Of a stretch of 64,000 nucleotides of DNA, positions 24,556 through 63,851 are shown piece by piece (within the stretch, counting starts at the first letter, position 1; each line of letters begins with the position of its first letter). The DNA is taken from contig NW_025963779.1 of NCBI RefSeq assembly GCF_023055435.1, positions 70,866,001 to 70,930,000 on the forward strand, in the 5' to 3' direction. The notes beneath the pieces were generated by a model. The model did no database searches. It was not told the origin of the DNA and was given only the letters and a program-made list of their open reading frames with translations. The translations under genes and the position numbers were made by a program. This DNA is from Haliotis rufescens. Lineage: Eukaryota.

Positions 24556-24728
24556 NNNNNNNNNNNNNNNNNNNNNNNNNNNNNNNNNNNNNNNNNNNNN
24601 NNNNNNNNNNNNNNNNNNNNNNNNNNNNNNNNNNNNNNNNNNNNNNNNNNNNNNNNNNNNNNNNNNNNNNNNNNNNNNNNNNNNNNNNNNNNNNNNNNNN
24701 NNNNNNNNNNNNNNNNNNNNNNNNNNNN
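24556..24728. other. Assembly gap (N run)
   Basis: Run of N. Confidence 1.
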
Positions 24729-32305: not shown

Positions 32306-32574
32306 GAACCGCCTCCGTGGTCTAGTGGTTGAGCGTCCGCCCGGAGAGCGGAAGGTCCGGGGTTCGATCCCCGGCCGCGGCATACCAAAAGACGTTAAAA
32401 GATGGTACTTGTTGTTACTCTGTCTGGCGCCCGGCATTAAGGGGCTAAAACAAGGACTGGTCGGCTCGGAGTCAGTATACTGTGTCTGCAGGGGGTATTC
32501 ATGTTAAACTGCGGCATGGTATCTCAGTGTGCCAGCACTCTAAATCGGCATCGGTCCGGACTAGTACAATCAGC

Positions 32575-32607
<33 letters not shown>

Positions 32608-32634
32608 ATGCACGTCGCAATATAAGTGCAATAA
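32306..32634 (+). mobile_element. tRNA-derived Meta-domain-like SINE (family 2) with (CA)n
   Basis: GGTCTAGTGG A box, GGTTCGATCC B box, CATACCAAAAGACGTTAAAAGATGGTAC core. Copies at 33740-34025 (spanning the gap), 40407-40757 (-), 47145-47463 and ~49880-50092 (-). Confidence 0.85.
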
Positions 32635-33841
32635 CCTTCCGGAAGTGTTCAATTTTACAACCAACGGGACACCACTGTAACCATTGTTAAATACGACCGA
32701 AAAACATAAAGAGGCCTGCATGAAGTCTGCTATATGATAATGTACTGTGTTGTCTGTAATCCTCTCGTGTATGCACGTCGTTTACTGCATATTATTGCGT
32801 ACGAGAGCATGTGGGATTTGGCATTCACCTCATGTCTCATGCGGCTCCGTGAAATAGTTTCTCAAGTTTCTGTCAAACATTCACTCAACTTATTGTGCTT
32901 TCCCTGGTTATTCGTGAGAATTTAGAACATCGTATTTAATTTAATTTCGACACATAATGCTACTGCTTACTTTGGTCAGGGTTGAATTTATGGCAAATTT
33001 AAAGTATCATGAAAAATAGTAATGGATTTGTTTTACATCATTATGTAGCCAGTATGATGTACAATACAATGGCCGAGAAAAAATGTGAAAGCGTAAAGTT
33101 AGCAGTGTTGCCCATAATTAAACGTATCTATTTTGAGGTCTGTATTAGTAACAACAAAAACTAATCTTAAGAGCGCGACCGTGGTTTAACCACCAGCCGG
33201 GTACAGATAATACGCGATCGTTTCAATATTTGTGGGGAGACCCGTGCTATATATATAACACTGAATGGATGCCATGTATGTCAAGAGCATGGCTAGTGAG
33301 GGTAAATGACGTGGAATGACAAATGAATGTTACACTTCGACAACCGCAGCAAAGACTAGCGACCCGGAACTGCTTCCTCAAAGGGGATTCCCCGTGACCT
33401 CGCGCTAGTTTGAAACAATTCTCAAAAATAGTCGGGAACTCCCATGTGCTATAAAATTGCGAGGCCCTGTTATCACCTACCAATACATCTGTTAAACAAA
33501 GTCTTTAACAATGTTCAAGAGAGCATATTATAATCAGGTAAACTTTAATTTTATTTTGCTAATTTCTGTGGCGGTCATATTGTACAAACTGTATGCGGAA
33601 GTAATGGTCTGTATGTGGTTTACTGTGTAATCTTGCAGGCCATGACATCAGGCCACTTATCGCGAGTATAAAAGTGTTAGCTTCTTAATTCATCCTGTTG
33701 AGAAAACTGAAATGCATGTCAAAGTATTCATTTAATAGCGAACCGCCTCCAAGGTCTTGTGGTAGAGCGTCCGCCCGGAAAGCTGAAGGTCAGGAGTTCG
33801 ATCCCCGGCCGTGTCATACCTAAAGACGTTAAAAGATGGTA

Positions 33842-33982
33842 NNNNNNNNNNNNNNNNNNNNNNNNNNNNNNNNNNNNNNNNNNNNNNNNNNNNNNNNNNN
33901 NNNNNNNNNNNNNNNNNNNNNNNNNNNNNNNNNNNNNNNNNNNNNNNNNNNNNNNNNNNNNNNNNNNNNNNNNNNNNNNNNN
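33842..33982. other. Assembly gap (N run) inside a SINE
   Basis: Run of N flanked by the 5' and 3' parts of a family 2 SINE. Confidence 1.
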
Positions 33983-35977
33983 GCAAGTGATCTTGGACGC
34001 GACGTTAAACCCTATTTCACCTCATGAGCTAAAATGGAGGACTTCGGGGCACCTTGATACTGTTTTATGGCAGTGTATTTTATTGTTGAACAATAATTGT
34101 AGTTGTGTTACATTTTTTCTGTTGAGATTTGGTAGACGCTAATTGCATTGTTTGGACAGTGTTAAGTCGTCAGGAATGTAGTACTATTTAACGTAAGTAG
34201 TCGTTAGAAAGTTACTATATTTAGATGCTAGTGTGGTGTGTAAACTTCCGGTTCGGTATACCGCCGACGGTGATAGTGTGTTGAAGAAACATGTGGAATG
34301 CTCTAGTACCACTGGTGAGGGCACTGTTTAGAAGTTTCCAGAAGCTAGCTGGACTGTTTATCTATTGGTATAAGAGCATGTTACGCATCTCTCACACAAT
34401 ACATCACAGCAAGACCAGTTTTCGTGTGAGGATCACTCATCATCCCTGATTGCCTGCCTAAACCAACTCGCAAGCTTGACCACCGTCGCCGCTGGGTGAA
34501 TATGCTATTGTCACTGGTTGTTGCTATCACCAGTGTATCTTTGTATTTGATACTGACCACTACCATTATATTATTTATTGCTATTGAATATTGTACAACA
34601 ACTCTGTTGTGTACTGCCATTGTAATTGCTGTGCTGTAATTTGTGTCGATTTGTAAACGTTGTTTTGTAATACAATAATTTGTTAATTGTATACCTTTTG
34701 TTGGTTGTTTGAGGGTTGACACTAAGTTCTTTTACACACAGTATTCTGGGTTAACTTTTTGTTTCAATATGGGAATCGACACGTGACAATACGTATTAAC
34801 CCAAATCACAGAAGCTGATAGCTGTCCAAGTCATCGGCTCTTACAGCAAACATGAGGTACTAGGGATCTCTACTGACCCAGAATGTCCACAGGGTTAGTC
34901 GTATAACTGCAAACAAACATATTCGGTATTTGTAGTCTGATATCCCGTACAGTTGATATATAACTTACCTTTCGCGTAAACCTGGATAAGAAGACAGATA
35001 TATCCACACAAACGAGAATATCTCCCAACCATTTTGCCCTGAAGTATGTAAGTGTGCTTTGGTTGATGTACATCCTTGTTCAGTATGTATAAACCATCTG
35101 GAACGTCATCCCATTGTTCTATACGGGGTTTACTCATTGTAGCAGCTATTTTGAGTCCATCAAGGTGAAAGCTGACATACGGAAATATGAAAAGGTGCAC
35201 CCGAGAATTATAGATTAAAAATCCATTCGTTGAACATAGGATGTTTTACATGTATACATATTAAGTGCGTTGTGGCGTAATCAACAGAGCTTTGGTACCC
35301 GTCAGGAATTGCCCTATAAATTCGTTTTAATCCGTTTGCTAAATTAGATGCACACTAACAAATTGTAGTTATGATGTCCATGAAATCATGACAATATTAT
35401 TTTGACACTTTAATTCAAACACATGTACACCATGACAACAACAGTATATGTCTCTATAGCAAAGTGTAAATGTGGCGCGATATTGCAATGAACAGCGACT
35501 CCCTTTTTAATTTGGACAGTTACATATCTTAGAAAAGGTTAAATACTTGTACTTTTGGCCTCTGAACGTCCTTGATGGTTGGGGACTGTCATAGTTTTAT
35601 TGATTTGTACATTTTCCCCTATGCACAAGTACATGAGACATCACGTATTTGACATCATAAGTTAACCATTAAAAGTCCACGTGGATGATGTAATAATGTC
35701 TCTCCCAGGAAATATTTCATATCATAAAATAAATATATTGTGAGAATATTCAAAGTCTCACCCCGATATCATTCCTGCCTTGTCTCAAAAGGCTAGTGTT
35801 TGGTTTTGCACCACATTGGCAGAAGATAAATACGACCGGTTCATAATACATAAATCCTCCCTGATGAAGGTATTATATACGTGATGGGCAGTGACCGGGC
35901 TTTATGCCGACGGTTATATCATATCAAGTTATATTTGGAAAGTGGCACAGGTCTAAGAAAATTATCGCTTTGATGGT

Positions 35978-39776: not shown

Positions 39777-42700
39777 ATGAAGGTAGGTGCTGTACATTAT
39801 GATTCTTAAGATATGGTTTCTTCTTACGTTTGATTACTTGATTGCGAAGTATTGCTTCCTTCATGCATTATGTTGGCGGTCGGGTAGCCTAGTGGTTGAA
39901 ATGTTCGATCGTCACCCTGAAGACCGGGGAAGCCCATTTCTGGTGTCCCCCGCCGTGATATTGCTGGTATATTGCTAAGAGCGGCGTAAAACCATATTCA
40001 CTCACAATGCATTACGCTTTAAAGCTGGCCATGAATACACTGCCCGTAGTCATAGTGTGCGAAATGAACAACTTTGAACAACCTTAGTCTGTTAATTCCA
40101 GTATATTGCATCATTGTGTTTGGTTGATGCTGGTTATTTATTATCGTGTCTTGTCACGGCCTTCAATCTGTGCAGTGAGATGAGCCATTATCATCTGAAA
40201 TAATCATGTAAAATAAACTGCCTTTCAGGTGTGGGTTGTGCTCTTCGTGTCTGCATGCATGCTGGTGGAAGCTGAATCCGGTCTTGCTAAAGGTACATCA
40301 CTCTGCATGTCATTGTGTCAAAAAATACGTCTATAGTCTCCAGGATCTATTGTCCTGTAGAAACTGCAAAAAGCAAAGTCATAACAGTAACGTTAAAGTA
40401 ATACAGGTGAGGTGAAATGGGGTTTAACGACGCGTCCAAGACTATTGCACTTATATAGCGACGTGCATGTACATGTGTATGTTTGTGTGGCTGCTTGTAC
40501 TAGTCCTGACTGATGCCGATTTATAGTGCTAGCTCACTGAGATACCATGCCGTAGTTTAACATGAATACCCCACTCAGACATAGTGCACTGACTCCGAGC
40601 CGACCAGTCCTTGTTTTAGGCCCTTAAAGCCGAGCGCCAGACAGAGTAACAACAAGTACCATCTTTTAACGTCTTTTGGTATGACGTGGCCGGGGATCGA
40701 ACCCAGGACCTTCCGCTCTCCGGGCGGACGCTCTACCTCTTGACTACGGAGGCGGTCTAAAGTAATACAGACGCTGACTGTTTTCCTTATGACTTCAACA
40801 TCAATATATCTTGCACATGATTTTGTTTGGTTAATATCTTTCAGACAATTCAAAATGCCAGGATGCATTAGCTTGGTGTAAAGGCGTCAACTGTGACAGC
40901 CCTGGAATGGCAGATACGTGCCCGGTGACGTGTGGACGCTGCAACCCCACAGGTTTAATGTTTTCTTCTATCTGATGTAGTAGAGCCATGTGAATGTACA
41001 TCGACCTTGAACTAAACTGAGGGGCAAAAGAAAGTATACTGAGTTTGCTCTTGGAACTGGAACATGAAAGAAATTATGCTTAATTTGATTATGTCTATTT
41101 AACAATCACTCATTCCTGCAACGCTTTAAACCTAAATTGCTTCAATGTAGACTGGGGTAAGAAATATATTTGCAACCACATGACCAGTACCATGTTTGAA
41201 ATATAAATGTTTGCCGATGAAAGCAAATATATTGATTTTCTAAGATATGATGTCTAAGATATCCATCAGCAGTTGTGTATTTAACGAATGTAACTTTTAC
41301 TATATACTTCAATGTGAAAGACTGAGGTTTCCGAAGTTGAGAAAAGTGTTTTTTTTCATTGCAGTGAACATAACACTTGATATTTCACAGCAGTGAACTC
41401 AACACTTGATATTTCACTGCATTGAACATAACACTTTGACGGAACCATTGTCATACGAGAGCTGCCTCCCCCTAAATGTCTCCCTTCGTCGTAAGTGACT
41501 AGCTCGTATACAAACTACTGACGTTCTATTTGACGTGAGGTCCACATTGACAAGGCAAAATAATGACAGACGATCGTTTATGGAGCTAATGTCACTTCTT
41601 GCTGTTTGTTATTCTCTCGGAAATGTTTCCTTGTCAATCGAGACTGTTCGTTTTGCAAAGGGACAATTTTATTACTTGACAAGAGTGTATTCTTTCGCTT
41701 CCAACAGCGGTCTCCTAGTTTTCAAGAATATTTTTTGTTAAAGTTGATTATGTTTATAATCATATTTAAATTGATCACATCATCAGCTATCAATACCATT
41801 AAATGTGTTGGATGAACATCATGCTTGATACTATTTGTTTACCAAAAGTGAAAACAACAGTTAATTCAACGTTCGAGTTGTCTTTAAACTACATTAACAA
41901 CCATGACATGTCAAAGCTCTAAAAAAAATTATCAAATGTATTTCATCACTGTTTACTGTTTACTTTTTTAATCACCAACTATACTTCATTTGGAATATAT
42001 GCTAACGGTACGAAGAGGGGAATATTCTGTGACTTGTTCGAAGGGTGGTTTTTGCAGCCCAAATCGTTCGGACGGAGGTTAACACAACTGCACTTGGCAT
42101 ACTCTTACTCAAATACAACATCGTGTATAAAATCTAACAACATTATCAATGAACTTTAGATTTAATTGGCTTAATACCACGAAAATAACATTCTTCTATT
42201 TTGTAGACTGTGGACCTGGTATGTACTGGAATGGCACCACTTGTGCACAATGCTTGGACGGGCTGCCTGCTGAAAACAAGGGAAGTTGTCCATGTATCAT
42301 ACCAGGCAGATGGGGATCAAAGTGTGAACATCAGTGCAACAAAGGGTGTTCGGGTGGTACATGCCACCCACTGTCTGGAGAATGTGAAAACTGTAAACGG
42401 GACAGGTATGGCAAGTCCTGTGATAACACATGTGATGCCAACTGTAATAACTGTACAAATACATCCTCAAACTGTCACCGAACAACTGGAACCTGTCTGT
42501 GTGGATGTAGACCAGGCCTCTATGGAGGTACATGTGAACTACAGTGCCTTGACAACTGTAGATTCAAGACATGTAATTCCTCTGGAATCTGTGTTCATGG
42601 TTGTAAGGAAGGATACTTCGGACCAAAATGTGATGAAAACTGTGGAGAATGTGTTAATCAATCTTGTTCAAGAATAGGTACATGTTTGAAAGGTTGCAAC

Positions 42701-45700
42701 AGTGGATGGCACGGTTTGAAATGCAAAACCCGCTGCAGTTACAACTGTGAACATTCAAACTGCCATCAGAACGGAACGTGCATGGCGTGCATGGGTGGGT
42801 TTCATGGCGACCAATGCAACAAAAACTGTTCTGCTGGATGTGCCACGAGACAGTGTAACAGAGATAGCAATGTAAAGTGCCTTAATACAAGTTGTAGTCA
42901 GACCTCTGGGGAATGTGACTATGGTTGTGTAACGGGCTGGTATGGAGCCGCGTGTAGTGACACATGTCCGGACAACTGTTCTGCTGGCACATGCAACAGA
43001 GATGGTGGATCGTGTCTATCTTGTAGGGAGGGATTCAGAGGAACACACTGTAACATGTCATGTCCTCCAGATTGTGTTGAATGTCAGCAGAATGCCAGTA
43101 ACTGCACATCATGTGAACCTGGTTATTTTGGAAACACGTGTAAAAAAGAGTGCGACGGTTGCCTGGATGGGAGGTGTAAGATCTCAGATGGGTTGTGCAT
43201 AGCCGGCTGTAAACCAAGCTTGTATGGACGCGAATGTCACTACACCTGCAGCAGAAATTGTTTGAGGCAAAATGGTGCCTCGTTGTGTTTTCCAAGTAAC
43301 GGAACCTGTGTTTACGGTTGTAACACTGGATGGTACAAGGCAGAGTGTGATACTCCATGTCCCCCAGGGTGTAGCGGGACTACGTGTGATAACTTCACTG
43401 GCAGATGTTCAAATGGTTGCACAGACGCACTGTATGGTCCACACTGTGATCAGTTATGTCGCTGTCTGATGTCCCGATGTAACGCGACGGGCTCATGTAC
43501 GGGGTGTCAGAATGGCTACTATGGCCAGAGCTGTTCTTCAACATGTCAATCGAGATGTGATACCTGTGAGCAGTACACCGGCGACTGTGTTACCTGTGTG
43601 GAAGGCTGGCACGGTCAACTGTGCAAAGGTAAGAAGAGTGATGTGCTGATATTGGAGTCAATTCTTAGTTGTTCAAGCTACTGATCGATCATTTCTGAAA
43701 AGGTTTAAAATTTACATTCAGGATATTGTCCCGTTTATTTAAGTCACCGCCCGATGGACCCATATTGTCATCTCTGCGTCTGTAATTTGTCATTTAAGCT
43801 AAAGGGCCTGTCACACACTACCGATGTACCTCGCCGGGACTAAACCGGAGCAAAAAATTAACAACGGCGAGAAAATCGGCGGAGCTCCGGCGAGAAAGCA
43901 CTTGAAAAATCAAAATTGATAGTAGCAATACCGATGTAGTACCGGCGTTCCCGTTGTGATACCGTTGTTCTACAGTTGTCCTACCGATGTAAGGATGTAC
44001 AGAATAACACGTTTCTGTCACCTTAGTGTTACCGATGCGCCGCCGATGTTATACCGATGTACCGCCGTTGACCGGAGCTATAGCGGAGTGATACAGTTGC
44101 GCTGCCGATGCACTACCGATGTGCTACTATGTGTACATCGGAAGGACAACGGTGTGACGGTGGAGCTCCGGTATCACATCGGCGGCGCATCGGTACTACT
44201 TCGGTGATATTCGGTAGTACTACGGTATCACATCGGTACCAGTACGGTACACATTGAAGCCACCGGAGAGCCTGTTCTTAGCGATGTGATATCGTTGCGC
44301 TGCCGTACTAGTACCGATCCCCGAAAATCGCAAATTTGTGCTCTGGTATAGCTCCGGCGACCCAAATCGGCTAGGTGTGACAGGCCCTTAAGCCAGTGAA
44401 TCAGGCTCACCCTCGCTTCAGACATATAAGGACATGTCAGCAGTATGTCCTTATAGTACTGAAGTGATGCGGGTCTTAGACGTTTTCCACAGTGGTGAAA
44501 CCCATGAACATCCGAAACCTACAAAACATTAGTAGAGTGAACCGTTATTCGAATCCACGTTCATAGGTTTGCGACTCCTTAGATAACTTCTCCCATTCCC
44601 TCTTCAACCTCAACACTCACCCTCACCCTCACCTTAAACCCATCTCCCACCCTCACCCTCACACTCACCCCATCTCTCACCCTCGCCCTCAACACTAATC
44701 CTCACCCTCACCCCATCTCTCACCCTCACCCTCACCCTCTCCCCATCTCTCACCCTCGCCCTCAACACTAATCCTCACTCTCACCCTCAACCAATCTCCC
44801 ACCCTCACCCTCACCCCATCTCTCGACCTCGCCCTCAACACTAATCCTCACCCTCACCCTCACCCCATCTCTCACCCTCGCCCTCAACACTAATCCTCAC
44901 CCTCACCCTAAACCCATCTCCCACCCTCACCCTCACCCCATCTCTCACCCTCGCCCTCAACACTAATCCTCACCCTAACCCTCAACCCATATCCCACCCT
45001 CAACCTCACCCCATCTCTCGACCTCGCCCTCAACACTAATCCTCACTCTCACCCTCATCTCTCACCCTCGCCCTCAACACTAATCCTCACCCGCACCCTC
45101 AACCCATCTCCCACCCTCACTCTCACCCTCACCCCATCTCTCACCCTCGTCCTCAACACTAATCCTCACCCTCACCCTCAACCCATCTCCCACCCTCACC
45201 CTCTCCCTAAACCCATCTCCCACCCTCACCCTCACCCTCACCCTCACCCCATCTCTTACCCTCGCCCTCACCCCATCTCTCGACCTCGCCCTCAACACTA
45301 ATCCTCACCCTCACCCTCACCCTCACCCCATCTCTCACCCTCACCCTCACCCCATCTCTCGACCTCGCCCTCAACACTAACCCTCACCCTCACCCCATCT
45401 CTCACCCTCGCCCTCAACACTAATCCTCACCCTCACCCTAAACCCACCTCCCACCCTCACCCTCAACCTCACCCCATCTCTCACCCTCGCCCTCAAGATT
45501 AATCCTCACCCTCAACCTCACCCCATCTCTCGACCTCGCCCTCAACACTAATCCTCACCCTCACCCTCAACCCATCTCTCACCCTCGCCCTCAACACTAA
45601 TCCTCACCCTCACCCTCACCCCATCTCTTACCCTCGCCCTCACCCCATCTCTCGACCTTGCCCTCAACACTAATCCTCACCCTCACCCTCACCCCATCTC

Positions 45701-46962
45701 TCACCCTCACCCTCACCCCATCTCTCGACCTCGCCCTCAACACTAATCCTCACCCTCACCCTAAACCATTCTCCCAACCTCACCCTCACCCTCACCCCAT
45801 CTCTCACCCTCGCCCTCAACACTAATCCTCACCCTCACCCTCAACCCATCTCCCACCCTCACCCTCACCCCATCTCTCGACCTCGCCCTCAACACTAATC
45901 CTCACCCTCACCCTCACCCCATCTCTCATCCTCGCCCTAAACACTAATCCTCACCCTCACCCTCGCCCTCGCTTCGTTCTCACCTTCACCTTCACCCTCA
46001 ACTCCACCCTCAACCTCAACCTCAACCCCACTCTCACCTTTACCCTCAACCCCACCCTCACCTCAACCCCACTCTCACCCTCAACTTCACCCTCATCCGC
46101 ATCCGCATCCGCATCCGCATCTGCAACCTCACCCTCATCCTCATCCTCACCTTCACCCTCATCCCCACTCCAACCCCTACTCCCATCTCCAGCTTCAATC
46201 CTTTATCGACACATTGAACTTAAGTCTCTTCTGTTCATAATTCCATTTTAACAGAGCTGAATGATATTGTCATATTCCGAAACATGTTGATCTATATATT
46301 AACAGTTGGTGAATTATGTACCCTTACTAGTTTGTTTAGCTACATGAATGTTCCACTTTTGCAGTGTCATACGTGCAGTCACTTCGTCATCGGGTCCGTG
46401 TTATGTCAACATGCATTGGAGTTGTCCTCTTTGGTGTTGGAATTGTAGTGGCCTTCATTATCATCAGGTAATACATCCTTTGTTCTTATATACAAGAATG
46501 TCCAGCAGTGCATGAAGAATAAGTAACCTAAGTATCTGCAGGTATAGACTTAGAATGCATTGAAATGTATGCTAAAAAAAATATTAATGTTTCAACATGG
46601 TCAATATCATAGCTTGTTAGGAATAAAGTGTCTTCCTTTATTGACAGTAGATCATAGTTTTCATTAACAAATACTTGATCGTGACTTGAATAGCTAATTA
46701 ATGAATTTTATGTTCCAGAAAAAAGTGCACTGGATCTCTCAGGGGCATTTATCTCTCCCCTGTCCGAACTGACCATCTTGTTTCGGATGACATTTCACTC
46801 CAAGAGTTCAGCGAGGACGGTGAAAGTGGACAATCTCACTATGAAACTATTCCAGACGATTCCCTGGGAGTATATGAGGCGCTTACACCTTCAACTTCAC
46901 GTACTTCCGGGTACACAGCTCTGCCGCCGTCGCTTGATAATGTCCGGGTGACAGGGGTCTAA
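39777..46962 (+). CDS. Gene A: ShK + multiple EGF-like (MEGF10/Draper/SCARF-type) type I receptor with ITAM tail, 648 aa predicted
   Basis: Exons 39777-39782 (MK), 40229-40292 (VWVVLFVSACMLVEAESGLAK, signal peptide), 40845-40952 (CQDALAWCKGVNCDSPGMADTCPVTCGRC, ShK pattern), 42207-43628 (474 codons, ~13 EGF-like repeats), 46365-46467 (TM CIGVVLFGVGIVVAFIII), 46719-46962 (tail with YETIPDDSLGVYEAL, SGYTAL, stop). All introns GT-AG, phases compatible, total 1947 nt with no internal stop. Confidence 0.88.
40407..40757 (-). mobile_element. Family 2 SINE inserted in gene A intron 2
   Basis: 13-bp TSD TAAAGTAATACAG (40394-40406, 40758-40770). The paralogous site in gene B (~51138-51150) is empty. 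Confidence 0.92.
43803..44388. mobile_element. MITE with TAA TSD (PIF/Harbinger-like)
   Basis: TIR AGGGCCTGTCACAC / GTGTGACAGGCCCT with TAA on both sides (43800-43802, 44389-44391); internal ACCGATG subrepeats. Confidence 0.9.
44600..46200. repeat. (ACCCTC)n-derived complex minisatellite in gene A intron 4
   Basis: ~1.6 kb of CCCTCA variants with a higher-order unit ACCCCATCTCTCACCCTCGCCCTCAACACTAATCCTC. Confidence 0.95.
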
Positions 46963-50522: not shown

Positions 50523-53500
50523 ATGAAGGTTGGTGCTGTACATTATGCTTCTTAAGATATGGTTTCTTCTTACGTCTGATTACTTGATTGCGAAGTATTG
50601 CTTCCTTCTTGCATTATGTTGGCGGTCGGGTAGCCTAGTGGTTAAAGCGTTCGATCGTCACTCCGAAGACCCGGGGAAGCCCATTCCTGGTGTCGCCCTC
50701 CGTGATATCGTGGAATATTGCTAAGAGCGGCGTAAAACCATACTCACTCACTTAATGCATTATGAGTTAAAGCTGGCAATGAATACACTGTCCGTAGTCA
50801 GAGTATGCGAAATGAACAACTTTGAACAACCTCACTCTGTTATTTCCAGCATAATGCATTTAGTTAATCCTGACTTATTATCGTGACTCGTCGCGTCCTT
50901 CAATCTGTGTAGTGAGATGAGCCATTATCATCTGAAATCATCATGTAAAATAAACTTAAGTCTACCTTTCAGGTGTGTATTGTGCTCTTCGTGTCTGCAT
51001 GCATACTGATGGAAGCCGAATCGGGTCTTGCTAAAGGTACATCACTCTGCATGTCATTGTGTCAAAAACTACATCTATAGTCTCCAGGACCTATTGTACA
51101 AAAGAAACATCAAAAGTCAAAGTAATAACAGTAACGTTAAAGTGATACAGACGCTGACTGTTTTCTTTATGTCTTCAACATAAATATATCTTTCACATGA
51201 CTTTGTTTGGTTAATATCTTTCAGACAATTCAAAATGCCAGGATGCATTAGCTTTGTGTAAAGGCGTCAACTGTGACAACCCTGGTATGGCAGATACGTG
51301 CCCGGTGACGTGTGGACGCTGCAACCCCACAGGTTTAATGTTTTCTTCTATCTGATGTAGTGGGGCCATATGAATGTACATCGAACCTGAACTAAACTGA
51401 GGGGCAAAAGAAAGTATACCGAGATTGCTCTTGTAACTGAAACATAAAAGAAATTATGCTTAATTTGATTATGTCTATTTAACAACCAGTCATTCCTGCA
51501 ACACTTTGTCTGGGTACTTTGGTGTTAACCTAAATTGGTCCAATGAAGACTGGAGTAGAAATATATTTGCAACCACATGACCAGTACCATGTTTGAAATA
51601 TAAATGTGTGCCGATGAAAGCAAATATATGGATTTTCTAAGTTATGATGTCTAAGATATCCATCAGCAGTTGTGTATTTAACGAATGTAACTTTTTATTA
51701 TATACTTCAGTGTGAAAGACTGAGTTTTCCGAGGTTGAGAAAAGTGATATTATAATTGCTGTGAACACAACACTTGATATTTCACTGTAGTGAACATAAC
51801 ACTTTGACGGAACCATTGTCATACGAGAGCTGCCTCCCCCTAAATTGTCTCCCTTTGTCGTAAGTGACTAGCCCGTATACTAACTTCTGACGTTCTTTTT
51901 TACGTTAGGTCCACATTGACAAGGCAAAATACAGACGGTCGTTTATGAAGTTCATATCACTTCTTGCTGTTTGTTATTCTCTCGAAAATGTTTCCTTATA
52001 AACTGTAAATTTCTCATTTGATTCGTCAATCGAGACTGTTCGTTTTGCAGAGCGACATTTTTATTACTTGACAAGCGTGTATTCTTTCGCTTCCAACAGC
52101 GTTCTCCTAGTGTTCAAGAATTTTTTTTGTTAAAGTTGATTATGCCTGAGACTGCTCCCGCTGTCCGGCCCCCACGGTAGCATATTTAAACGCTACCATT
52201 GCTTGGCAACTCCAAAAGCAGCTCCACGCTGCTGGCCTAAGTCAGACTACCGCTGCCCGGCCCCAGGTAGCCGGCCAAAGCAGATCCCACTGCCCGGCCC
52301 CATTAGCAAAACCATTGTGCGGCTCCCGCCGCGGACCCAACTGTCAGCTACCGCTTGACAAGACGACTTCCGCCGCCGGGCCCATATACGTGGCAACTGT
52401 TTGCCCCAACGTATGTTATTCTACGATTCCCCGGCTGAAAAGTCGGGAAAGACAAGGTTCCCACTGAGAAGCAGGTAACCCCGGAAAGGTTCCCGCTGAA
52501 AAGCAGGTAGCCTTAAGCACGAGTATTAATTTGGAAGCAAGTTAATTTGTTACTAGCAGTGTAGCCCACAAGAACCCCGCACACCTCGACATAGTTTATT
52601 GTTGAGACAGGTATTGCATATATACAGATATACAGCTATTAAGAAGTCATGTTTATTTACATATATCAGAATCGTTTAAAAGTATGTACATATATACAAG
52701 TGCTCTGAAAACCTATTTTAGATATGTACAGGTTTATTTACATATATACAATCTGCTCTGCTGGTACCTGTAATAGAATAGACGCTGAAGAAAAGAAGTG
52801 ATTAGCATTCCAGGTGAAGAGGACACGTCAGGCTGAAAAAGGAAAGAAAAAGGAGTGGCAAGCTGGGTGGGTGGGTGGGTGGGAAAGCGATTAGATACAG
52901 TGACACACGTGTGTACTTGGGGAAGGGCTGCTCGCGAATGACGGACTAACAAAGGGCGGGATGATGCTTGCGCGGGATTATTCCCCGGGCACGGTGCCGA
53001 GTGGTGGCCCGGGGTGATGGAGTTACGAGGGGTGATTGGGTTACAGACGTAATTAGCCCATGGTTTGGATACGCGCGATAAAGTCATTTAGTAGTTAGTA
53101 CTAAATGTAATTATTCCGCGATATGCCAAGGAGAGGCACGGGCCACCGAGCCGTGGATGCCCGTGCCTGTAATAAAACAGAAGATGAGATTGGGTTAAAT
53201 GGCCGAGGGTGTGCAGGTACTAGTGGGCTACTTAGCTGCTAATTGTATATACCACAAATGCTACCGTTGCCATGGCCACGCGCGTGGCCGACGGCGATTG
53301 CAGCTAGCGCTGCTGGCCTGAGACTGCTCCCGCTGTCCGGCCCCCACGGTAGCATATTTAAACGCTACCATTGCTTGGCAACTCCCACGTTGCCAAAAGC
53401 AGCTCCACGCTGCTGGCCTAAGTCAGACTACCGCTGCCCAGCCCCAGGTAGCCGGCCAAAGCAGATCCCACTGCCCGGCCCCATTAGCAAAACCATTGTG

Positions 53501-56500
53501 CGGCTCCCGCCGCGGACCCAACTGTCAGCTACCGCTTGACAAGACGACTTCCGCCGCCGGGCCCATATACGTGGCAACTGTTTGCCCCAACGTATGTTAT
53601 TCTACGATTCCCCGGCTGAAAAGTCGGGAAAGACAAGGTTCCCACTGAGAAGCAGGTAACCCCGGAAAGGTTCCCGCTGAAAAGCAGGTAGCCTTAAGCA
53701 CGAGTATTAATTTGGAAGCAAGTTAATTTGTTACAAGCAGTGTAGCCCACAAGAACCCCGCCACAAAGCACCAGAGTGCTACCCCACACCCACGGCCACG
53801 CGATACGCGGAGATAGCATTGTTGCCCGGCTTGCCTATGTACTGAAAGGAAACACTAACCTGTGGAGATAATATCCTTACTGGCGCAAAACGAGCGCCAG
53901 GGCATGCAATAAATTGTCCGTAAACACACACAGTCCTTTATCACTGAGGTGGACGCCCTCCCAGGCGTACCATGTCTTGTCTGATGCCAGGATCTGGGGA
54001 TGTGGCACTGTTGTACCGCCGAGCTCTTTGACTCGGTTGGTCAGTCGGCGGTTGATATTCTTCCGCATCCCCTCGATCTTTCGTGGATCCCTGGCATCGT
54101 GCCAGTAGCGCCTAAAGCGATTAGATACAGTGACACACGTGTGTACTTGGGGAAGGGCTGCTCGCGAATGACGGACTAACAAAGGGCGGGATGATGCTTG
54201 CGCGGGATTATTCCCCGGGCACGGTGCCGAGTGGTGGCCGGGGTGATTGAGTTACGAGGGGTGATTGGGTTACAGACGTAATTAGCCCATGGTTTGGATA
54301 CGCGCGATAAAGTCATTTAGTAGTTAGTACTAAATGTAAATTTTTTTTAAGATTTTGCAAACACGAAACTTCTTTTTAAGTCGCAAAAACAAGGGGTGAT
54401 AAACCGTCCCTGTGTGTTAGGTAGGGAAATTTGCTTTTCAAGGATTTACATTTGTAAAGAAATACCAATTTTCTGGTAGACAACCACATAAAAAGTATCA
54501 AATAAATGGGATATTCCATGAGTAAAATATCCAGTTTCTCTCATCTCGTGACGGGAGAAAAACAGATATTTTCACTCGTGGCGTATAGAATATTTAGAAG
54601 TGTTAAATCAAATCATATTTTACAAAATATAAACATGTAATATTTTGTGAGTGCAGACTAATCGCCAGAATAATATAATATTGGTAGCTTAAGATAAGTT
54701 TACTTGAAAATCAAAATATAATAAAATCAACTGAGGTATGTAATCTTTTGCTCATCAGTTTATTTTCATTTTAAGTCATTAAGTCTTAATATGCATTTTG
54801 ATGGAGTATTACGGAAAACTACGGATTATTTTTAATTCATTTACGTATGCATATATTTGGCCGGCTGATTCTATTTTTGAGTGCACTGATACGTGGTTGA
54901 TGTTACATGCAATTACTGTTTGATTTCGATTATGATAACTGACATTTAGCAAGTCAGTATAAGTATAAGAATGAGGAAGGTAACATTGCTGTACTTCTTT
55001 GTACTTGCGACAGTGTCCACATTTCATGTAAATATCTGTCGAGTTCATTAGTGTCTCACTGGGTTCCATTCCGGTATTCTTCACGATTATGATCGTGGGT
55101 CTGTTGGCCACAGACAAGAACTTATAGGTTTCTCCGAAGTGGTATACTTCTACGACTTGGGTTCGATTTGGATCTCTTCGACAGACATGATGACGTCATA
55201 AAGCTTAACGTAACGTCGTTCATTCACAATTGACTCTTTTCCCACGATTAATAAAACATCTGTTTTACTCCTAATGATTAACGTATTTTATGTGTCAGTG
55301 GATTTTGCTGGAACTTAAATTTAGCTCGTAAAATTCCGTAGAATCCTTTGCATCACACTGTTAGATTGGATATTTTTGTTTGTTGAGTTTCAAAACAGTA
55401 AATTATGACAACACAGTGTTAAAGGAGCACCTATTCTCATTACATCACATTTCGTTTCAATTCACACCTACCTTTTTCAAAAGTAACTAAGTGCTTTGAA
55501 GTCCTGTGTTCGATTCCCGACACGGGTACAATGTGTGAAGCCCATTTCTGGTGTCTCCCGCCATGATATTGCTGGATTATTGCTAAAAGCGGCGTAAAAC
55601 CATACTCACTCATTCACTTGTGTGACCCCGACATACCATTTCATAATATGCTCACATGATCAGCTATCAATACCATTAAATGTGTGGGATGAAAACCTTG
55701 CTTGATACTTTGTTTACGTAAAGTGAAAACAACAGTTAATTCAGCGTTCGAGTTTTCTTTAAACTAGATTGACAACCATGAAATTGCAAAACTCTAAAGC
55801 TTTTATCAAATTTATTTCATCACTGTTTACTGTTTACTTTTTTAATCACCAACTATACTTCATTCCGATTGATATAATTTATATGCTAACAATCCCAGAT
55901 GAAATATTCTGTAAGTATGAACTAGTTCGGAGGCTGGTTTTTGCAGCCCAAATCGTTTATAAACGTTCGGACGGGGGTTAACACAACTGCACTTGACAAA
56001 CTCTTACTCAAATACAATAACATCGTGTATAAACTCCAACAATATGATCAATGAACTTTAGAATTCATTGGCTTAATGCCACGAAAATAACGTTCTTCTA
56101 TTTTGCAGACTGTCGACCTGGTATGTACTGGAATGGCACCACTTGTGCACAATGCTTGGACGGGCTGCCTGCTGAAAACAAGGGAAGTTGTCCATGTATC
56201 ATACCAGGCAGATGGGGATCAAAGTGTAAACATCAGTGCAACAAATGGTGTTCGGGTGGTACATGCCACCCACTGTCTGGAGAATGTGAAAACTGTAAAC
56301 GGGACAGGTATACCAAGTCCTGTGAAGAGACATGTGCCAACTGTAATAACTGTACAAATACATCCTCAAACTGTCACCGAACAACTGGAACCTGTCTGTG
56401 TGGTTGTAGACAAGGCTTCAGTGGAGGTACATGTGAACAACGCTGCCCTGACAACTGTAGATTCAAGACATGTAATTCCTCTGGAATCTGTGTTGATGGT

Positions 56501-59500
56501 TGTAAGAAAGGATACTTCGGACCAAAATGTGATGAAAAATGTGGAGAATGTGTTAATCAATCTTGTGCAAGAATAGGCACATGTTTGAAAGGTTGCAACA
56601 GTGGATGGCACGGTTTGAAATGCAACACCCCCTGCAGTTACAACTGTGAACTTGCAAATTGTGATCATAACGGAACGTGCATGGCGTGCTTGGGTGGGTT
56701 TCATGGCGACCAATGCAACAAAAACTGTTCTGCTGGATGTGCCACGAGACAGTGTAACAGAGATAGCAATGTAAAGTGCCTTAATACAAGTTGTAGTCAG
56801 ACCTCTGGGGAATGTGACTATGGTTGTGTAACGGGCTGGTATGGAGCCACGTGTAGTGACACATGTCCGGACAACTGTTCTGATGATACATGCAACAGAG
56901 ACGGTGGATCGTGTCTATCTTGTAGGGAGGGGTTCAGAGGGACACACTGTAACATGTCATGTCCTCCAGATTGTGTTGAATGTCAGCAGAATGCCAGTAA
57001 CTGCACATCATGTGAACCTGGTTATTTTGGAAACACGTGTGAAAAAGAGTGCGACGGTTGCCTGGATGGGAGGTGTAACATCACAGATGGGTTCTGCATA
57101 GCCGGTTGTAAACCAAGCTTGTATGGACGAGAATGCCAGTTTAATTGCAGCAGAAATTGTTTGAGGCAAAATGAAGTCTCATCGTGTTTTCAAAGCAACG
57201 GAACCTGTGTTTACGGTTGTAACACTGGATGGTACAAGGCAGAGTGTGATATTCCATGTCCACCAGGGTGTAGCGGGACTACGTGTGATGACTTCACTGG
57301 CAGATGTTCAAATGGTTGCACAGATGCACTGTATGGTCCACACTGTAATCAGTCATGTCGCTGTCTGATGTCCCGATGTAACGCGACGGGCTTATGTACG
57401 GGGTGTCAGAATGGCTACTATGGCCAGAGCTGTTCTTCAACATGTCCATCGAGATGTGATACCTGTGAGCAGAACACCGGCGACTGTGTTACTTGTGTGG
57501 AAGGCTGGCACGGTCACCTGTGCAAAGGTAAGAAGATTGATGTGCTGATATTAGAGTCAAGTCTTAGTTGTTCAAGCTACTGATCGATCATTTCTGAAAA
57601 GGTTTAAAATTTACATTCAGGATATTGTCCCGTTTATTTTAAGTCATCGACAATTAGGCCCAGATGGACCCATATTGTCATCTCTGCGTCTGTAATTTGT
57701 CATTTAAGCTAAAGGGCCTGTATCACACTACCGATGTACCTCGCCGGGACTAAACCGGAGCAAATATTTAACAATGGCGAGAAAATCGGCGGAGCTCCGG
57801 CGAGAAAGCACTTGAAAAATCAAAATTGATAGTAGCAATACCGATGTAGTACCGGCGTTCCCGTTGTTCTACCTTTGTCCTACCGATGTAAGAGCCGATG
57901 TGCTACAGAATACCACTTTTCTGTCAACTTAGTGTTACCGATGCGCCGCTGATGTTATACCGATGTACCATCGTTGACCGGAGCTATAGCGGAGTGATAC
58001 AGTTGCGCTGCCGACGCACTACCGATGTGCTACTATGTGTACATCGGAAGGACAACGGTGTGACGGTGGAACTCCGGTTTCACATCGGCGGCGCATCGGT
58101 ACTACTTCGGTGGTATTCGGTAGTACTACGGTATCACATCGGTACCAGTACTGTACACATTGAGGCCACCGGAGAGCCGGTTCTTATACGTGATATCGTT
58201 GCGCTGCCGTACTTGTACCTATCCCCGAAAATCGCCAAATTTGTGCTCTGGTATAGCTCCGGCGACCCAAATCGGCTAGGTGTGACAGGCCCTTAAGCCA
58301 GTGAATCATTATTGTAACCCACTGTCTGGAGAATGTGAAAACTGTAAACGGGACAGGTATACCAGATCCTGTGAAGAGACATGTGCCAACTGTAATAACT
58401 GCATAAATACATCCTCAAACTGTCACCGAACAACTGGAACCTGTCTGTGTGGTTGTAGACCAGGCCTCTGTGGAGGTGCATGTGAACGACGCTGCCTTGC
58501 CAACTGTAGATTCAAGACATGTAATTCCTCTGGAATCTGTGTTGATGGTTGTAAGGAAGGATACTTCGGACCAAAATGTGATAAAAAATGTGGAGAATGT
58601 GTTAATCAATCTTGTTCAAGAATAGGTACATGTTTGAAAGGTTGCAACAGTGGATGGCACGGTTTGAAATGCAACACCCCCTGCAGTTACAACTGTGAAC
58701 ATTTAAATTGTCATCAGAACGGAACATGCATGGCGTGCTTGGGTGGGTTTCATGGCGACCAATGCAACAAAAACTGTGCCACGAGACAGTGTAACAGAGA
58801 TAGCAATGTAAAGTGCCTTAATACAAGTTGTAGTCAGACCTCTGGGGAATGTGACTATGGTTGTGTATCGGGCTGGTATGGAGCCACGTGTAGTGACACA
58901 TGTCCGGACAACTGTTCTGATGATACATGCAACAGAGACGGTGGATCGTGTCTATCTTGTAGGGAGGGATTCAGAGGGACACACTGTAACATGTCATGTC
59001 CTCCACATTGTGTTGAATGTCAGCAGAATGCCAGTAACTGCACACCATGTGAGCCTGGTTATTTCGGAAACACGTGTGAGAAAGAGTGTGACGGTTGCCT
59101 GGATGGGAGGTGTAATATCACAGATGGGTTCTGCATGGCCGGTTGTAAACCAAGCTTGTATGGACGAGAATGTCGGTTCAATTGCAGCAGAAATTGTTTG
59201 TGGCAAAATGATGTCTCATCGTGTTTTCCAAGTAACGGAACCTGTGTTTACGGTTGTAACACTGGATGGTACAAGGCAGAGTGTGATACTCCATGTCCAC
59301 CAGGGTGTAGCGGGACTACGTGTGATGACTTCACTGGCAGATGTTCAAACGGTTGCATAGATGCACTGCATGGTCCACACTGTAATCACACATGTAGCAG
59401 CAACTGCAGGAATAGTAGCTGTCAAATGGATAGCGCTAACAGAACTGTACTGTCCTGTACAGTTGGATGTGAAGATGGCATGTGGGGCGACTACTGTGCC

Positions 59501-62500
59501 AGTACCTGCCCTGGCCACTGTCCAAAATGCAACAGAACCTTTGGTTCCTGTGTGAAACGTGAGAACCATAGATACCTTATATAGATAGAAGGATTGACAC
59601 ACTAGAGCTCGGCACGCCGACTGTCATACAAAATGTTTAAACGACCAATAATAAAATATTCCTATCTGTTCTCAGTACATGAATATGCTCGATAGTCAGT
59701 AGAAAGCGTTAACCCTCCATGTACTTAAAATAAACTGTTAGTAAAGATTAGTATTGATCTGCACATCGTGACGTCACATTTTCCACTTTTCCCTTTAACT
59801 TTAAATGTTGACCAAATGCAGGTATGGCTTGTATTAAACTAATTAGGATTTATGCAAACAAGATGTAATGAGCGAGAGCGGAACCAAAACAGTAGATCAA
59901 GACAGTAGTTTCTTGTATCTATCGTGGGGGCGGTCGGGTAGCCCATTGGTTAAAGCGTTCGCTCGTCACGCCGAAGACCTGGGTTCGATTCCCGACATGG
60001 GTACAATGTGTGAAGCCCTTTCATGGCATCCCCCGCCGTGATATTGCTGGAATATTGCTTAAAGCGGCGTAAAACCATACTCACTCACTCACTCACTGTA
60101 TCCATCGTGGTACGTCGAGAGATCATGCATTGTCACAGCAATCATCAGGCTCTATAACGGGTTTGGCTTTATAGTGACGAGGCTAATAAAATGAAGTATA
60201 TTTTGATATTATTTGAAAACAGATATGGTTTTTTGATATTTTGGCACCACTTCTTTGCATGAAACATTTATATTGACGAAAACTATAACATATACACGTA
60301 AACATTAAGAGACCAAAAGTAACTCCAGTTCAGATAGTGTTTAGAGGTAAAATAATGTACATTTGAGTTAATTTATTTAGGAATATACTGAGGAAGTATT
60401 AAGATGATGGGCAACAAGCATTTATACATAACGTCTGCATGTACTTAACGTTTTATCAGATAGGTATTTCTAAAATCTTTGTTACATAATGTAACTGTAC
60501 GAATGAAAAATGACGTGTGCATTTTATTGCGCTAGCACTTGTTAATATTGGGAAATCGTTGACCATGTTAACAGTTTCGGTTAAGTAATGTGGTTAGAAT
60601 ATTAAATACATTTTAGCTACACATCTAGGTTAATAGTTTATTCATTAGGAAACAATACAATATGTGCATGTTGGTGTGATATGTTTACTGCAAATAGATG
60701 AGAACGTGCTCATTTATGTATTTCCCTCAGGGTCACTTCATGGATGACGTCAGAGAGTTTCATGTCACGCAACGCAGTTACAATGCAGTGACGATAATTA
60801 AAAAAGCGTTGAGGCACTGCTCGCATAAGCATTCGCACATGTCCTAAAATGGGAAATAACATGATTTTTGTGTAAAGGAAAATATTCTCGCCCATGGGCC
60901 AAACCTTTTTCTCGCCAATGGGCGAAATATTTCAATATCGCTATAAAATCGTTGAATTAAGCTAAAATGAGTTAAATTTTGTGTCATGATACTTGAAGGA
61001 AAACAAGTTAAGTATTTGCCAAACAAAAACATGAGTTTTGTGTAAAGGAAAATATTCTCGCCCATGGGCCAAGCCTTTTTCTCGCCCATGGGCGAAATAT
61101 TTCAATATCGCTATAAAATCGTTGAATTAAGTTAAAATGAGTTAATTTTGTGTCATGATACTTGAAGGAATACATCTACGTATTTGCCAAACAAAAACAT
61201 GAGTTTTGAGTAAAGGAAAATATTCTCGCCCATGGGCCAAGCCTTTTTCTCGCCCATGGGCGAAATATTTCAATATCGCTATAAAATCGTTGAATTAAGT
61301 TAAAACGAGTTAAATTTTGTGTCATGATACTTGAAGGAATGCATTAAAATATATTTGCGAAACAAACACATAAGTTTTGTGTAATGGAAAATATTCTCGC
61401 CCATGCATGGGCGAAATATTTCAATATCGCTATAAAATCGTTGAATTAAGTTAAAATGAGTTAAATTTTGTGTATGATACTTGATGGAATACAAGTTAAG
61501 TATTTGCGAAACAAAAACATGAGTTTTGAGTAAAGGAAAATATTCTCGCCCATGGGCGAGATGGTGTAAATATTGAGTTTTTAAACTCTTTTTTTTCTTC
61601 TTTTTTTTTCCCTTAGTATGTTACCATGAAAACAGCATGCTTATTTTTGTAAATACCTTTGACCGAGACTGGGAAAAGACCGTAGATTTTCTGGACTTTT
61701 GGGTTTCCAGAATTAAAATTGGACGTGTTTTCTCTTTTTGTTTCATATGTAACACTGTATCATTTAAATTGGACTTTTAGTCTATGATTCACGGTTTCAC
61801 TGCCACAGAAGGGTGACAGATTGACAGTATGACCTTAGAACACTCCCAAACTTGGCATTATGAACGAGCAGATGCCATAAAATCATAATGGTATATGCAT
61901 AAATAGATTAAAGAAGTGAAATTAGACAATGTTCGCGAATCAACTTAATATTTTTACGAAATATTTATGTCCACTTATATCTCCAAAGAAAATTATCAAG
62001 TGTAAAATTTCTTCTAACATTGTACGATACCGACTATGTTATAAGTATGTGTCTAGGAATCACAATCAAATATTCAGTGAGGATACCAGGTGTTCAACAT
62101 GAGGTCAGAAATTATTATCGAAAACTTTCCTTTACGAAAAAGTTGCTTATTTTTTCATTTATTTGAAGACACATTGCTCTAATCTTTCTACATTCTCAGC
62201 AACTATTCGTGCCGTGTCTTATGTTTCCATTTAGAACTGGGAATCTACAATAAATTCTTGCTCTTGATGAATATGCGCCAACAATGCAACGTTTGGTCCA
62301 CAGACATAATTATTTAATGGAATGTGCCATAAAATATAAAGGATAAAAAACATATGTACAAAATATTACGCAATGCAATCATAACCTACGTTTGTCTTTT
62401 GTGGAAAGAAACAAATAACTTCTATAAATACTGTCGTGTATTTCATATCATGCATTACAGAAACACCTCAAACCAACACTGTTGTCCCTTGGCTGGTGGT

Positions 62501-63851
62501 TCTGTTTGTGATCATCATCATTCTTCTTATAATGGCTCTATTTGTCGTAAGAAGGTAAGAACAAACAAACCGCATGGTCAATCTTATCTCTAATACGAAT
62601 AGAAACATGATTTCACAGCTGACCAAACCCAAGTGTCACAGTAACCGAAGACTTGCATCATGTGCAGTTTATTCTTACATTTTAATACTTTTTCAGGTTC
62701 TGGTACTGATTGTTATCCTGGGTTTTTTTTCAGGAATAAACCCCACAATATCCTGAAATGGAGATACACTGTCAGTCATTCTCCAAGCAGCACGACTGTA
62801 ATGTCCCTAATCAATCCTTCGTATCAGTCGACGCCAAGAGGTAACTGGGTATTCGTGAATACACGGTCAATCATAAGATGACTTAAAAATGTCAGCATTT
62901 TTTTGGTATTAAGAATAACACAATGATGATCTTCTTTGAACAATATATAAAAACAAAATAGATTGCATTGTACTCACAGTTGCTATGATCTGTGTCCAAT
63001 TGTGATAGTTGTGAAGGCGACTGTACTCCACTGGTTAAACATATCCAGTATAGGTCCAATTGTTCCGATTGGTGTCATGTGTGATGCTTAGACAGTATCT
63101 AGTTGTTTTAAAATATCGCTAAAACTGCCAACTCCTTATAATGTGTTTCAGGTTCCAGAACTCCTGAGGATTCTGACTACCAAGAGCTAGAGCCACTGAC
63201 GAATACAGTCAGAGAGGATGATTACATCACACCAAAAGATACAGACGATGCTTACACACTTACGTCTAGAGCCAGTCACCTTATCTCCCCCAATGAGTCC
63301 GGTAATGATGGGGGATTTACACCTGACCGTAGTCCTCCTCCGTGTCATGTGACAGACGATTCACATCCGAACACCATGTTGTCAACAGAAGTGATGGTGC
63401 AAGGTCTGAGACTCTACGTCGAACAGATGAAGAGGAGTGGTGGTTTCACAACGCAGTGCTATGTATGTCAGTTCTTGATTCTATTTGAAGGCATGCAGGG
63501 TATGGTATATCAATCATTTACGAATACCTTCCCTACGTTTAAAGGTAGATTTAAAATTTTCAATTTCAGACTTATCCACATTAGTCTTTTGTGCATAATA
63601 TATCCATATGTTATTGTTATTATATTATTATACTCAGTTAATAAAACCATATATATCTATAGCCATGATAATCATTCGTAAACACGAATACGTATGACCT
63701 TCAACGTTTTCTCACATTCACTGGTCATTCCTATTTCTGATATTTGAACATGACATGTATTAGAACCTTCCCTGTGGCAAGCTTGGCCCCTGTGACGAAG
63801 CCGAGTTACCAGAGAATGCTTCCAAAAACAGATACAGAAACGTATTACCCT
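50523..63851 (+). CDS. Gene B: ShK + EGF-repeat receptor-type tyrosine phosphatase (runs off the window)
   Basis: Exons 50523-50528 (MK), 50973-51036 (signal peptide), 51225-51332 (ShK), 56109-57527 (473 codons EGF), optional 58302-59558 (EGF), 62461-62554 (TM VVPWLVVLFVIIIILLIMALFVV), 62734-62840 (..INPSYQ..), 63152-63462 (SDYQEL..CHVTDDSHP..GGF, paralogous to exon 96-385), 63764-63851 (ENASKNRYRNVLP, paralogous to 569-656). Phases are compatible. The ectodomain-to-TM link is inferred, and the catalytic site lies outside the window. Confidence 0.75.
52144..54339 (-). mobile_element. Internally deleted Ngaro-type (DIRS order) retrotransposon with split direct repeats
   Basis: Repeat X 52144-52580 = 53316-53761 and repeat Y 52884-53110 = 54114-54339. 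On the minus strand the order is A1-ORF-B1-A2-B2. ORF remnant 53877-54113 ends EGVHLSDKG (SGNH hydrolase DxxH-like block). Absent from gene A intron 3. Confidence 0.7.
57713..58293. mobile_element. MITE with TAA TSD, paralogous copy of 43803-44388
   Basis: Same TIRs, TSD and flanks, so it was copied with the segmental duplication. Confidence 0.9.
58302..59558 (+). CDS. Third EGF-repeat exon (C): 5'-truncated copy of the A/B exon with a different 3' end
   Basis: Open frame of 419 codons. 58317-59388 aligns to the B exon, 59389-59558 is divergent EGF sequence, and there is a phase-1 donor AAAC|GTGAGA. The acceptor CCAG at 58301 is in phase but has a weak polypyrimidine tract. Confidence 0.6.
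59928..60096 (+). mobile_element. tRNA-derived SINE family 1 with TSD
   Basis: TSD TGTATC(T/C)ATCGTGG on both sides and (ACTC)n tail. Confidence 0.9.
60855..61560. repeat. ~170-bp tandem satellite (about 4 units) with CGCCCATGGGCG palindromes
   Basis: Units start near 60858, 61028, 61196, 61366 and 61516. Confidence 0.9.

Follow-up and report, generated by a model that had tools for sequence, protein, structure and literature searches.

What does a protein tyrosine phosphatase (PTP) of the receptor type do when it carries an array of EGF repeats outside the cell and several tyrosine motifs inside it, and with which partner does it work? The question is raised by a 64,000-nucleotide stretch of the abalone Haliotis rufescens, here called the window (NCBI RefSeq assembly GCF_023055435.1, contig NW_025963779.1, positions 70,866,001 to 70,930,000, forward strand; G000:C1:70866001-70930000). 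At its 3' end an initial annotation had recognised a receptor PTP with a CED-1/Draper-like juxtamembrane region and proposed an engulfment-receptor-like chassis fused to a phosphatase. We find that this gene (type B) belongs to a tandem array in which it alternates with PTP-less genes (type A), whose tails carry motifs of the ITAM type (immunoreceptor tyrosine-based activation motif), and that A and B ectodomains are matched inside each subfamily. On this sequence evidence we consider it slightly better than an even chance that B is the built-in phosphatase brake of an activating/inhibitory receptor pair with the ITAM-tailed A.

Type-B phosphatase genes and their type-A neighbours

Each tandem unit comprises a signal-peptide exon, an ShK-like exon and a giant EGF exon; types A and B alternate, and every A and B unit has ShK and EGF exons of its own. 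Transcript evidence was taken from contigs of runs X1-X4, whose RNA nature is a guess, no run being on record as RNA. The type-B exons at the end of the window and past it are as follows (L001 coordinates run beyond the window, L001:400-460 being window 62400-62460).

62461-62554, plus strand: type-B transmembrane (TM) exon; exon model and contig
62734-62840, plus strand: type-B juxtamembrane exon with LINPSY (NPxY at 62813-62824); exon model, and a 107-nt gap in contig X3 record 17
63152-63462, plus strand: type-B juxtamembrane exon with SDYQEL (63172-63189), DDYITP (63217-63234), DAYTL (63247-63261) and the start of the wedge region; exon model and contig
63764-63851, plus strand: first type-B PTP exon (KNRY); exon model
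L001:3003-6032, with the last exon at L001:9068-9082: remaining type-B PTP exons, past the window, one catalytic domain

The TM, juxtamembrane and KNRY exons are all AG/GT-bounded and in phase, and the four motifs that the initial annotation had located between the TM and the KNRY exon lie within them exactly where it had placed them. Its identification of a receptor PTP was also correct: the exon model holds 10/10 catalytic motifs, with WPD, VHCSAGIGRTG and QTEDQY all present past the window, where WPD and HCSAG had been anticipated, and PF00102 aligns over 1-234/234 on the orthologue P0001 (Pfam). Type B combines a signal peptide, a single TM segment and a classical PTP domain, the link of this particular copy to its ectodomain being uncertain. 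Judged from these features, it is a classical receptor-type PTP with an EGF array, and its phosphatase activity is predicted from the motifs. After the single PTP domain come a short stub and a stop. The tandem D1-D2 arrangement, a feature of most receptor PTP (RPTP) subtypes, is absent from the gene; most of the other EGF-RPTPs compared have two PTP domains. The public H. rufescens model P0273 (463 aa) is identical to the exon model from the end of the TM segment onward. C-terminal to the PTP domain, a single tyrosine motif (GDYEVL, GDYENV or YAVV) is retained by most B proteins (L001:5622-6032, paralogues P0002-P0015), and in the B proteins of subfamily SF1 (see below) the terminal stub resembles the beginning of a lost second PTP domain.

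Contig X3 record 17 contains the TM exon, juxtamembrane sequence and one of the later PTP exons; its two gaps, 107 and 298 nt, match the added lengths of the intervening exons. It bears 5/5 of the sister-copy letters that distinguish the juxtamembrane exons and is therefore evidence for how the subfamily's exons are arranged, but not for this copy. The initial annotation had presupposed that these exons are transcribed; their spliced structure was recovered, in the letters of the sister copy.

After the EGF exon, type A has a TM exon unlike that of type B, an 80-aa tail and a stop. Exons of one such unit, A1, and of a cassette, A2, lie ahead of the phosphatase exons.

40229-40952, plus strand: A1 signal-peptide exon (40229-40292) and ShK-like exon (40845-40952); exon model, ShK profile
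42207-43628, plus strand: A1 giant EGF-array exon; the loose end of an X1 contig matches its 3' end
46365-46467, plus strand: A1 TM exon; spliced contigs
46719-46962, plus strand: A1 80-aa cytoplasmic tail, YETI-x7-YEAL-x9-YTAL (ITAM-type), stop, no PTP; spliced in X1 and X3
50973-51036, plus strand: A2 signal-peptide exon; model without the start-codon exon
51225-51332, plus strand: A2 ShK-like exon; PF01549 at 20.7 bits, cut-off 20.9
56109-57527, plus strand: A2 giant single EGF-array exon of 473 codons, its phase fitting that of the type-B TM exon

Modelled without its start exon, A1 (40229-46962) gives an open frame of 646 codons. Its TM-to-tail join (GT..AG, 251 nt) is present in contigs of X1 and X3, from two studies, and the X1 contig extends on into the EGF exon; run X4 yielded nothing for the A tail. 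Both types, A and B, are spliced in runs X1 and X3. Full-length type-A proteins are P0122, P0270 and P0271, from H. cracherodii, H. rufescens and H. asinina.

The 16 A tails examined are all homologous and keep YxxI, YExL and YTxL. At least one YxxL/I-x6-9-YxxL/I pair occurs in every one of them (16/16), whose shuffling produces such a pair at a rate of 0.7-3.2%. The last pair in SF2-4 is YExL-x8-YTxL, to which SF2 and SF3 add D/E three residues ahead. A-tail spacing fits within the ITAM consensus of x6-12 (PMC6994640, PMC13358205; here and below, statements on published work refer to the portions of the cited papers that were available).

A protocadherin-like model, in which several ectodomain cassettes are spliced to one PTP region, was rejected as a general rule because the upstream cassettes have TM and tail exons of their own, spliced in the contigs. 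The public model P0270 ('draper-like') runs from the A2 signal-peptide and ShK exons (window 50973-51332) into the next A gene's EGF exon (L002:9429 onward), across the whole PTP gene, which is either mis-annotation or real long-range splicing. The ShK exon of the A gene downstream of the PTP gene carries stops, and a decayed copy of a type-A tail exon, interrupted by stops and lacking an internal segment, lies at window 11601-11789.

Matching of A and B ectodomains

Four ectodomain subfamilies (SF1-SF4) were distinguished, located here, upstream, at C1:70.61-70.65 Mb and at C1:19.1-19.2 Mb, each with A and B genes. When the EGF exon's first 250 codons are compared, A and B share an identity of 0.66-0.94 inside a subfamily (24 pairs) versus 0.35-0.48 between subfamilies (74 pairs). 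The four subfamilies separate in an ectodomain tree of 29 rows, from which P0010 and P0015 were excluded because their exon start was not found; the tail label changes 11 times on this tree versus a shuffled mean of 10, that is, it is unclustered. Since A tails are homologous in all subfamilies and both A and B occur in each, we conclude from the alignments that the two tail types predate the subfamilies, although the ectodomains match inside each of them.

The matching is also seen within species. H. asinina A (P0271) and B (P0003) have 2 differences in their first 262 residues and diverge past about residue 340; over the same region, identity between either of them and the H. cracherodii orthologue is about 60% (A-A, B-B). 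A tree constrained to an A clade was rejected (approximately unbiased test, p-AU 3.7e-48; LG+G4, 11 rows, with a long-branch warning at the outgroup). H. rufescens A and B DNA is 89-91% identical over the 5' exons and introns. As read from these comparisons, gene conversion has matched the A and B ectodomains, which is a signature of paired receptors. Close linkage, highly similar ectodomains, differing tails and an ITAM-bearing member, by which such receptors are recognised, are all found here; in place of an immunoreceptor tyrosine-based inhibition motif (ITIM) recruiting SHP-1/2, type B has an intrinsic PTP. Ratios of non-synonymous to synonymous change, obtained by simple counting, are 0.60-1.19 for the EGF exon or ectodomain (10 pairs) versus 0.25 for the PTP domain (1 pair); the TM and juxtamembrane region shows 7 non-synonymous versus 1 synonymous change, too few to interpret.

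One further cluster was sampled, at C583:57.82-58.11 Mb (G000:C583:57820001-58110000; L072-L100), where five PTP genes built of small EGF exons, as is the whole cluster, are interleaved with PTP-less genes. The PTP-less tails end in YExL-x9-YSE[LI] in 5/6 of those translated; this type of tail has 29 matches on three contigs, and related tails occur on C279 and C410. Across five EGF exons, an ITAM-tail gene of the cluster and the next PTP gene share 220/241 residues; the comparison of three of those exons with a more distant PTP gene gives 89/143.

Other features of the array and its surroundings are these.

164-4675, plus strand: 3' part of a type-B PTP gene of the neighbouring subfamily SF2
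23036-35245, minus strand: exon-sized EGF-like and propeller-like frames, apparently a separate gene between two subfamilies, the propeller-like frames presumably of LDL-receptor type
About G000:C1 70780800-70865100, upstream of the window: 42-kb tandem duplication of the SF2 unit, 99.5% identity, a recent copy-number change or an assembly artefact

Roles considered for the phosphatase

If B is the brake of the pair, A and B would bind the same ligand through their common ShK and N-terminal EGF region. Once A is clustered, its ITAM would be open to phosphorylation by a Src-family kinase, and Syk would then be recruited; an oyster ITAM receptor recruits Syk (PMC6994640). Brought to the same ligand, B would directly dephosphorylate A or the kinases of A, with no recruitment of SHP through an ITIM, and its NPx[YF] would be a likely phosphotyrosine-binding (PTB) domain or endocytic sorting signal, dispensable in one subfamily.

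Several points weigh against a phosphatase brake. For H. asinina and H. cracherodii the proteins come from automatic gene prediction, and tandem arrays become homogenised even without selection. The A tails of SF1 and SF4 have no acidic residue 3 before the tyrosine, and the last SF1 spacer is 9. The contigs used are of low depth (2.6-9.9), guessed to be RNA and sister-copy-like. As regards this copy, P0273 starts inside the TM segment, without an ectodomain, and contigs X2 record 9 and X3 record 17 enter the intron before the TM exon (L001:400-460). Finally, anatomy does not decide which sign B has, because receptor PTPs such as CD45 and RPTP-alpha can also activate Src kinases.

This copy has a particular history. 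About 8.6 kb is missing relative to the downstream sister unit, comprising the TM and tail of A2 and the first exons of type B itself, and the far side of the junction falls inside the type-B EGF exon.

57712-58315, no strand: miniature inverted-repeat transposable element (MITE)-like sequence (57712-58294) in a type-A intron, with the deletion junction 13 bp beyond it and an 8-nt filler
58313-59570, plus strand: 5'-truncated type-B EGF exon, its acceptor deleted and the sister copy's donor lost; likely skipped

A putative splice from the A2 EGF exon to the type-B TM exon would yield an open frame of 1017 codons. As predicted from sequence, this copy either is a chimera of the A2 ectodomain and the PTP or has no ectodomain; the gap of about 8.6 kb may also be an assembly error. 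The contig ends inside the intron before the TM exon could reflect intron retention, or an intronic start producing a PTP without ectodomain. The MITE-like element, about 580 bp with terminal inverted repeats, is found in the intron that follows the type-A EGF exon, in copies at 43803-44389 and 57712-58294.

The same A/B anatomy would also suit a priming partner. In the manner of CD45 or RPTP-alpha, B would remove the inhibitory phosphate of a Src-family kinase and so switch the ligand-sharing A on, and its PTP domain is indeed of the classical receptor type, the nearest solved structures being PTPRS, LAR, PTPRA, PTPRE and CD45. We nevertheless consider priming unlikely: a priming enzyme has no obvious need of an ectodomain re-matched in each subfamily, and the non-ITAM partner in described paired receptors is typically inhibitory and acts via a phosphatase (PMC13358205).

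It is rather improbable that there is no functional pairing, and that we see an unstable tandem array in which unequal crossing-over homogenises the 5' halves of A and B, with this copy a decaying allele. The upstream 42-kb duplication, the disrupted A copies and the loss suffered by this copy all speak of instability, and introns and flanks equal exons in similarity. However, both tail types are retained in four subfamilies whose ectodomains share only about 40% identity, the tail tyrosines are invariant (16/16) and the PTP domain is under purifying selection; moreover, the layout recurs in the separate C583 cluster, and the PTP frame of this copy is intact.

Least probable, and quite doubtful, is the initial annotation's own proposal of a CED-1/Draper-type engulfment receptor fused to a phosphatase and signalling by NPxY-CED-6/GULP and an ITIM. 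The EGF array with LINPSY, conserved in SF1 and SF4, fits it, as do 8 matches to PTB-domain exons in the genome and the automatic names 'cell death abnormality protein 1-like' and 'protein draper-like'; a molluscan protein that is automatically named 'Draper-like', 'CED-1-like' or 'MEGF10' is not thereby shown to be an orthologue. The engulfment-receptor chassis itself did not survive comparison with domain profiles. The N-terminal exon matches ShK PF01549 (19-21 bits versus a cut-off of 20.9; 3/3 exons scanned), not EMI, and neither EGF_PEAR1L (PF23301) nor EGF_laminin (PF00053) has a Pfam match in P0001, P0122 or the A2 exon; EGF_PEAR1L or laminin-type EGF is the mark of most members in the MEGF10/Draper clusters listed. 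The EGF array of the locus genes is a single exon of about 1.4 kb, which gave 0 matches to PDB sequences at 1e-5; the top score in an ESM Atlas search, 0.88, is a lead only. Elsewhere in the genome, PF23301 matches are under the cut-off, and the sole EMI match, at G000:C594:21212465 (L061) on another contig, is followed by one EGF-type exon in the 100 kb of sequence inspected; a true Draper orthologue was not identified. The cytoplasmic NPxY typical of CED-1, Draper and MEGF10 is represented by the type-B LINPSY; A tails have none. By their domain content, the locus genes are not CED-1/Draper members.

The juxtamembrane motifs were followed in a close set of 23 type-B paralogues and orthologues from the four subfamilies, which are non-independent, orthologues and isoforms being included. 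NPxY is present in 13/23 (SF1 6/6, SF4 7/7), NPxF takes its place in SF3 (3/4), and SF2 (n=6) has neither. SDYQEL occurs in 6/23, all in SF1, and DAYTL in 4/6 SF1 proteins. Chance rates came from shuffling the 159-aa juxtamembrane segment, in which NPxY arises in 4.2% and the ITIM consensus in 23%. A wider survey of 157 proteins, after dropping 2 without PTP, 15 without TM and 6 too short before the PTP, left 52 EGF-type proteins and 82 others. NPxY is found in 8/52 of the EGF-array RPTPs versus 1.0 expected, 5 of them from the abalone clade, and in 3/43 EGF-RPTPs beyond the close abalone clade; ITIM matches number 13 among the 52 versus 8.8 expected, which is near chance. SDYQEL as an ITIM, as the initial annotation had read it, was rejected on its SF1-only occurrence, its shuffle rate and this near-chance frequency.

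NPx[YF] is, on this distribution, a genuine but dispensable motif of the clade, because it is kept in SF1 and SF4, has an F variant in SF3, is lost in SF2 and is rare outside the clade. The conservation among paralogues that the initial annotation had hoped for thus applies to NPxY in part and fails for SDYQEL. The Y-to-F change in SF3 points to a phosphorylation-independent PTB or sorting role, and NPxY can bind PTB proteins unphosphorylated (PMC8092387). Single YxxL-type sites in type B are limited to SF1, and the conserved ITAM sits on type A; homology between the A tail and the B juxtamembrane region was rejected, the two being dissimilar (best E 0.38). What remains of the likeness to Draper is the partly conserved NPxY and the presence of an ITAM at the locus, on the neighbouring PTP-less genes. 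An EGF array on an RPTP, whose novelty had been implied, was found in our protein survey in abalones, bivalves and another gastropod, and EGF-array RPTPs have already been described in Biomphalaria (PMC12297450, PMC13712769).

Relation to known receptor systems

The closest precedent is the avian Trojan family, comprising the receptor PTP Mystran, the ITAM-bearing Thracian, and Trojan (PMC4372362). Its genes are adjacent and share a common ectodomain plan, with one intrinsic PTP and one ITAM among them; ectodomains undergo gene conversion, and the extracellular part changes faster than the intracellular part. The family differs in having CCP and FN3 ectodomains, two PTP domains and three genes, and in that the largest conversion (in chicken) is between Mystran and Trojan, Mystran and Thracian being 44.8% identical, as that paper describes. 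The abalone genes have ShK and EGF, one PTP domain, direct conversion between PTP and ITAM genes, and four subfamilies; no homology is implied.

Siglec-5/14, Siglec-11/16 and PILR (PMC13358205) and Xenopus CEACAMs (PMC5112662) resemble the abalone array in their linked genes, conversion-matched ligand-binding regions and opposing tails. These vertebrate receptors are Ig or C-type lectin proteins (PMC13358205, PMC5112662), and their inhibitory member recruits SHP-1/2 by an ITIM (PMC13358205), whereas the abalone phosphatase is inside the receptor. Botryllus receptors have ITIM or hemITAM tails (PMC12582321). CED-1, Draper and MEGF10 share with the abalone genes an EGF-array ectodomain, NPxY (type B) and ITAM (type A), and Draper-II likewise involves a phosphatase, recruited as eraser, but CED-1 and Draper have EMI, and a single chain bears both NPxY and ITAM in Draper and MEGF10 (PMC8092387); in abalone, ShK stands in place of EMI, the motifs are divided between two genes and the phosphatase is intrinsic.

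Among gastropods, the MEGF/GBD receptor PTPs of Biomphalaria SudRes1 (PMC12297450) and the scavenger-class-F-like LG5R receptors 1A-1C (PMC13712769) are likewise clusters of single-pass EGF-array proteins. Some have PTP domains and most have short tails, haplotypes vary structurally, and there is a link to parasite resistance; these RPTPs differ in having tandem PTP domains and a galactose-binding domain. According to the two reports, the short tails bear no identifiable signatures, and short-tail and PTP subgroups are listed together (PMC12297450, PMC13712769). The word ITAM has 0 occurrences in the main texts of the two papers, whose supplements may bear on the tails. Paired receptors with converted ectodomains are well known, then, and an ITAM/PTP pairing exists already in the Trojan family; we met no account of an ITAM/PTP pair in molluscs in the literature searched, subscription papers being largely outside its coverage.

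More broadly, it is possible, and we propose it only tentatively, that abalone and probably other molluscs have a large innate system of paired EGF receptors, in at least two clusters, in which a PTP-bearing inhibitory partner and an ITAM receptor stay matched in ligand through repeated conversion, and ectodomains are exchanged by recombination between on tails and off tails, of which this copy would be an instance. Both EGF-array receptors and receptor PTPs have expanded greatly in molluscs, and in snails they map to loci of parasite resistance, for which the available portions of the reports offer no signalling logic beyond the statement that the PTP may signal. A matched ITAM/PTP pair, if true, would supply a testable logic in which one ligand gives two opposing outputs, and the balance of A to B, or an exchange of ectodomains, decides resistance. 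Paired receptors would then reach past the Ig and C-type lectin families, and an intrinsic phosphatase would have entered such a set twice independently, the avian Trojan family being the first case. The same logic would then explain the mixed short-tail and PTP clusters at the schistosome-resistance loci of snails.

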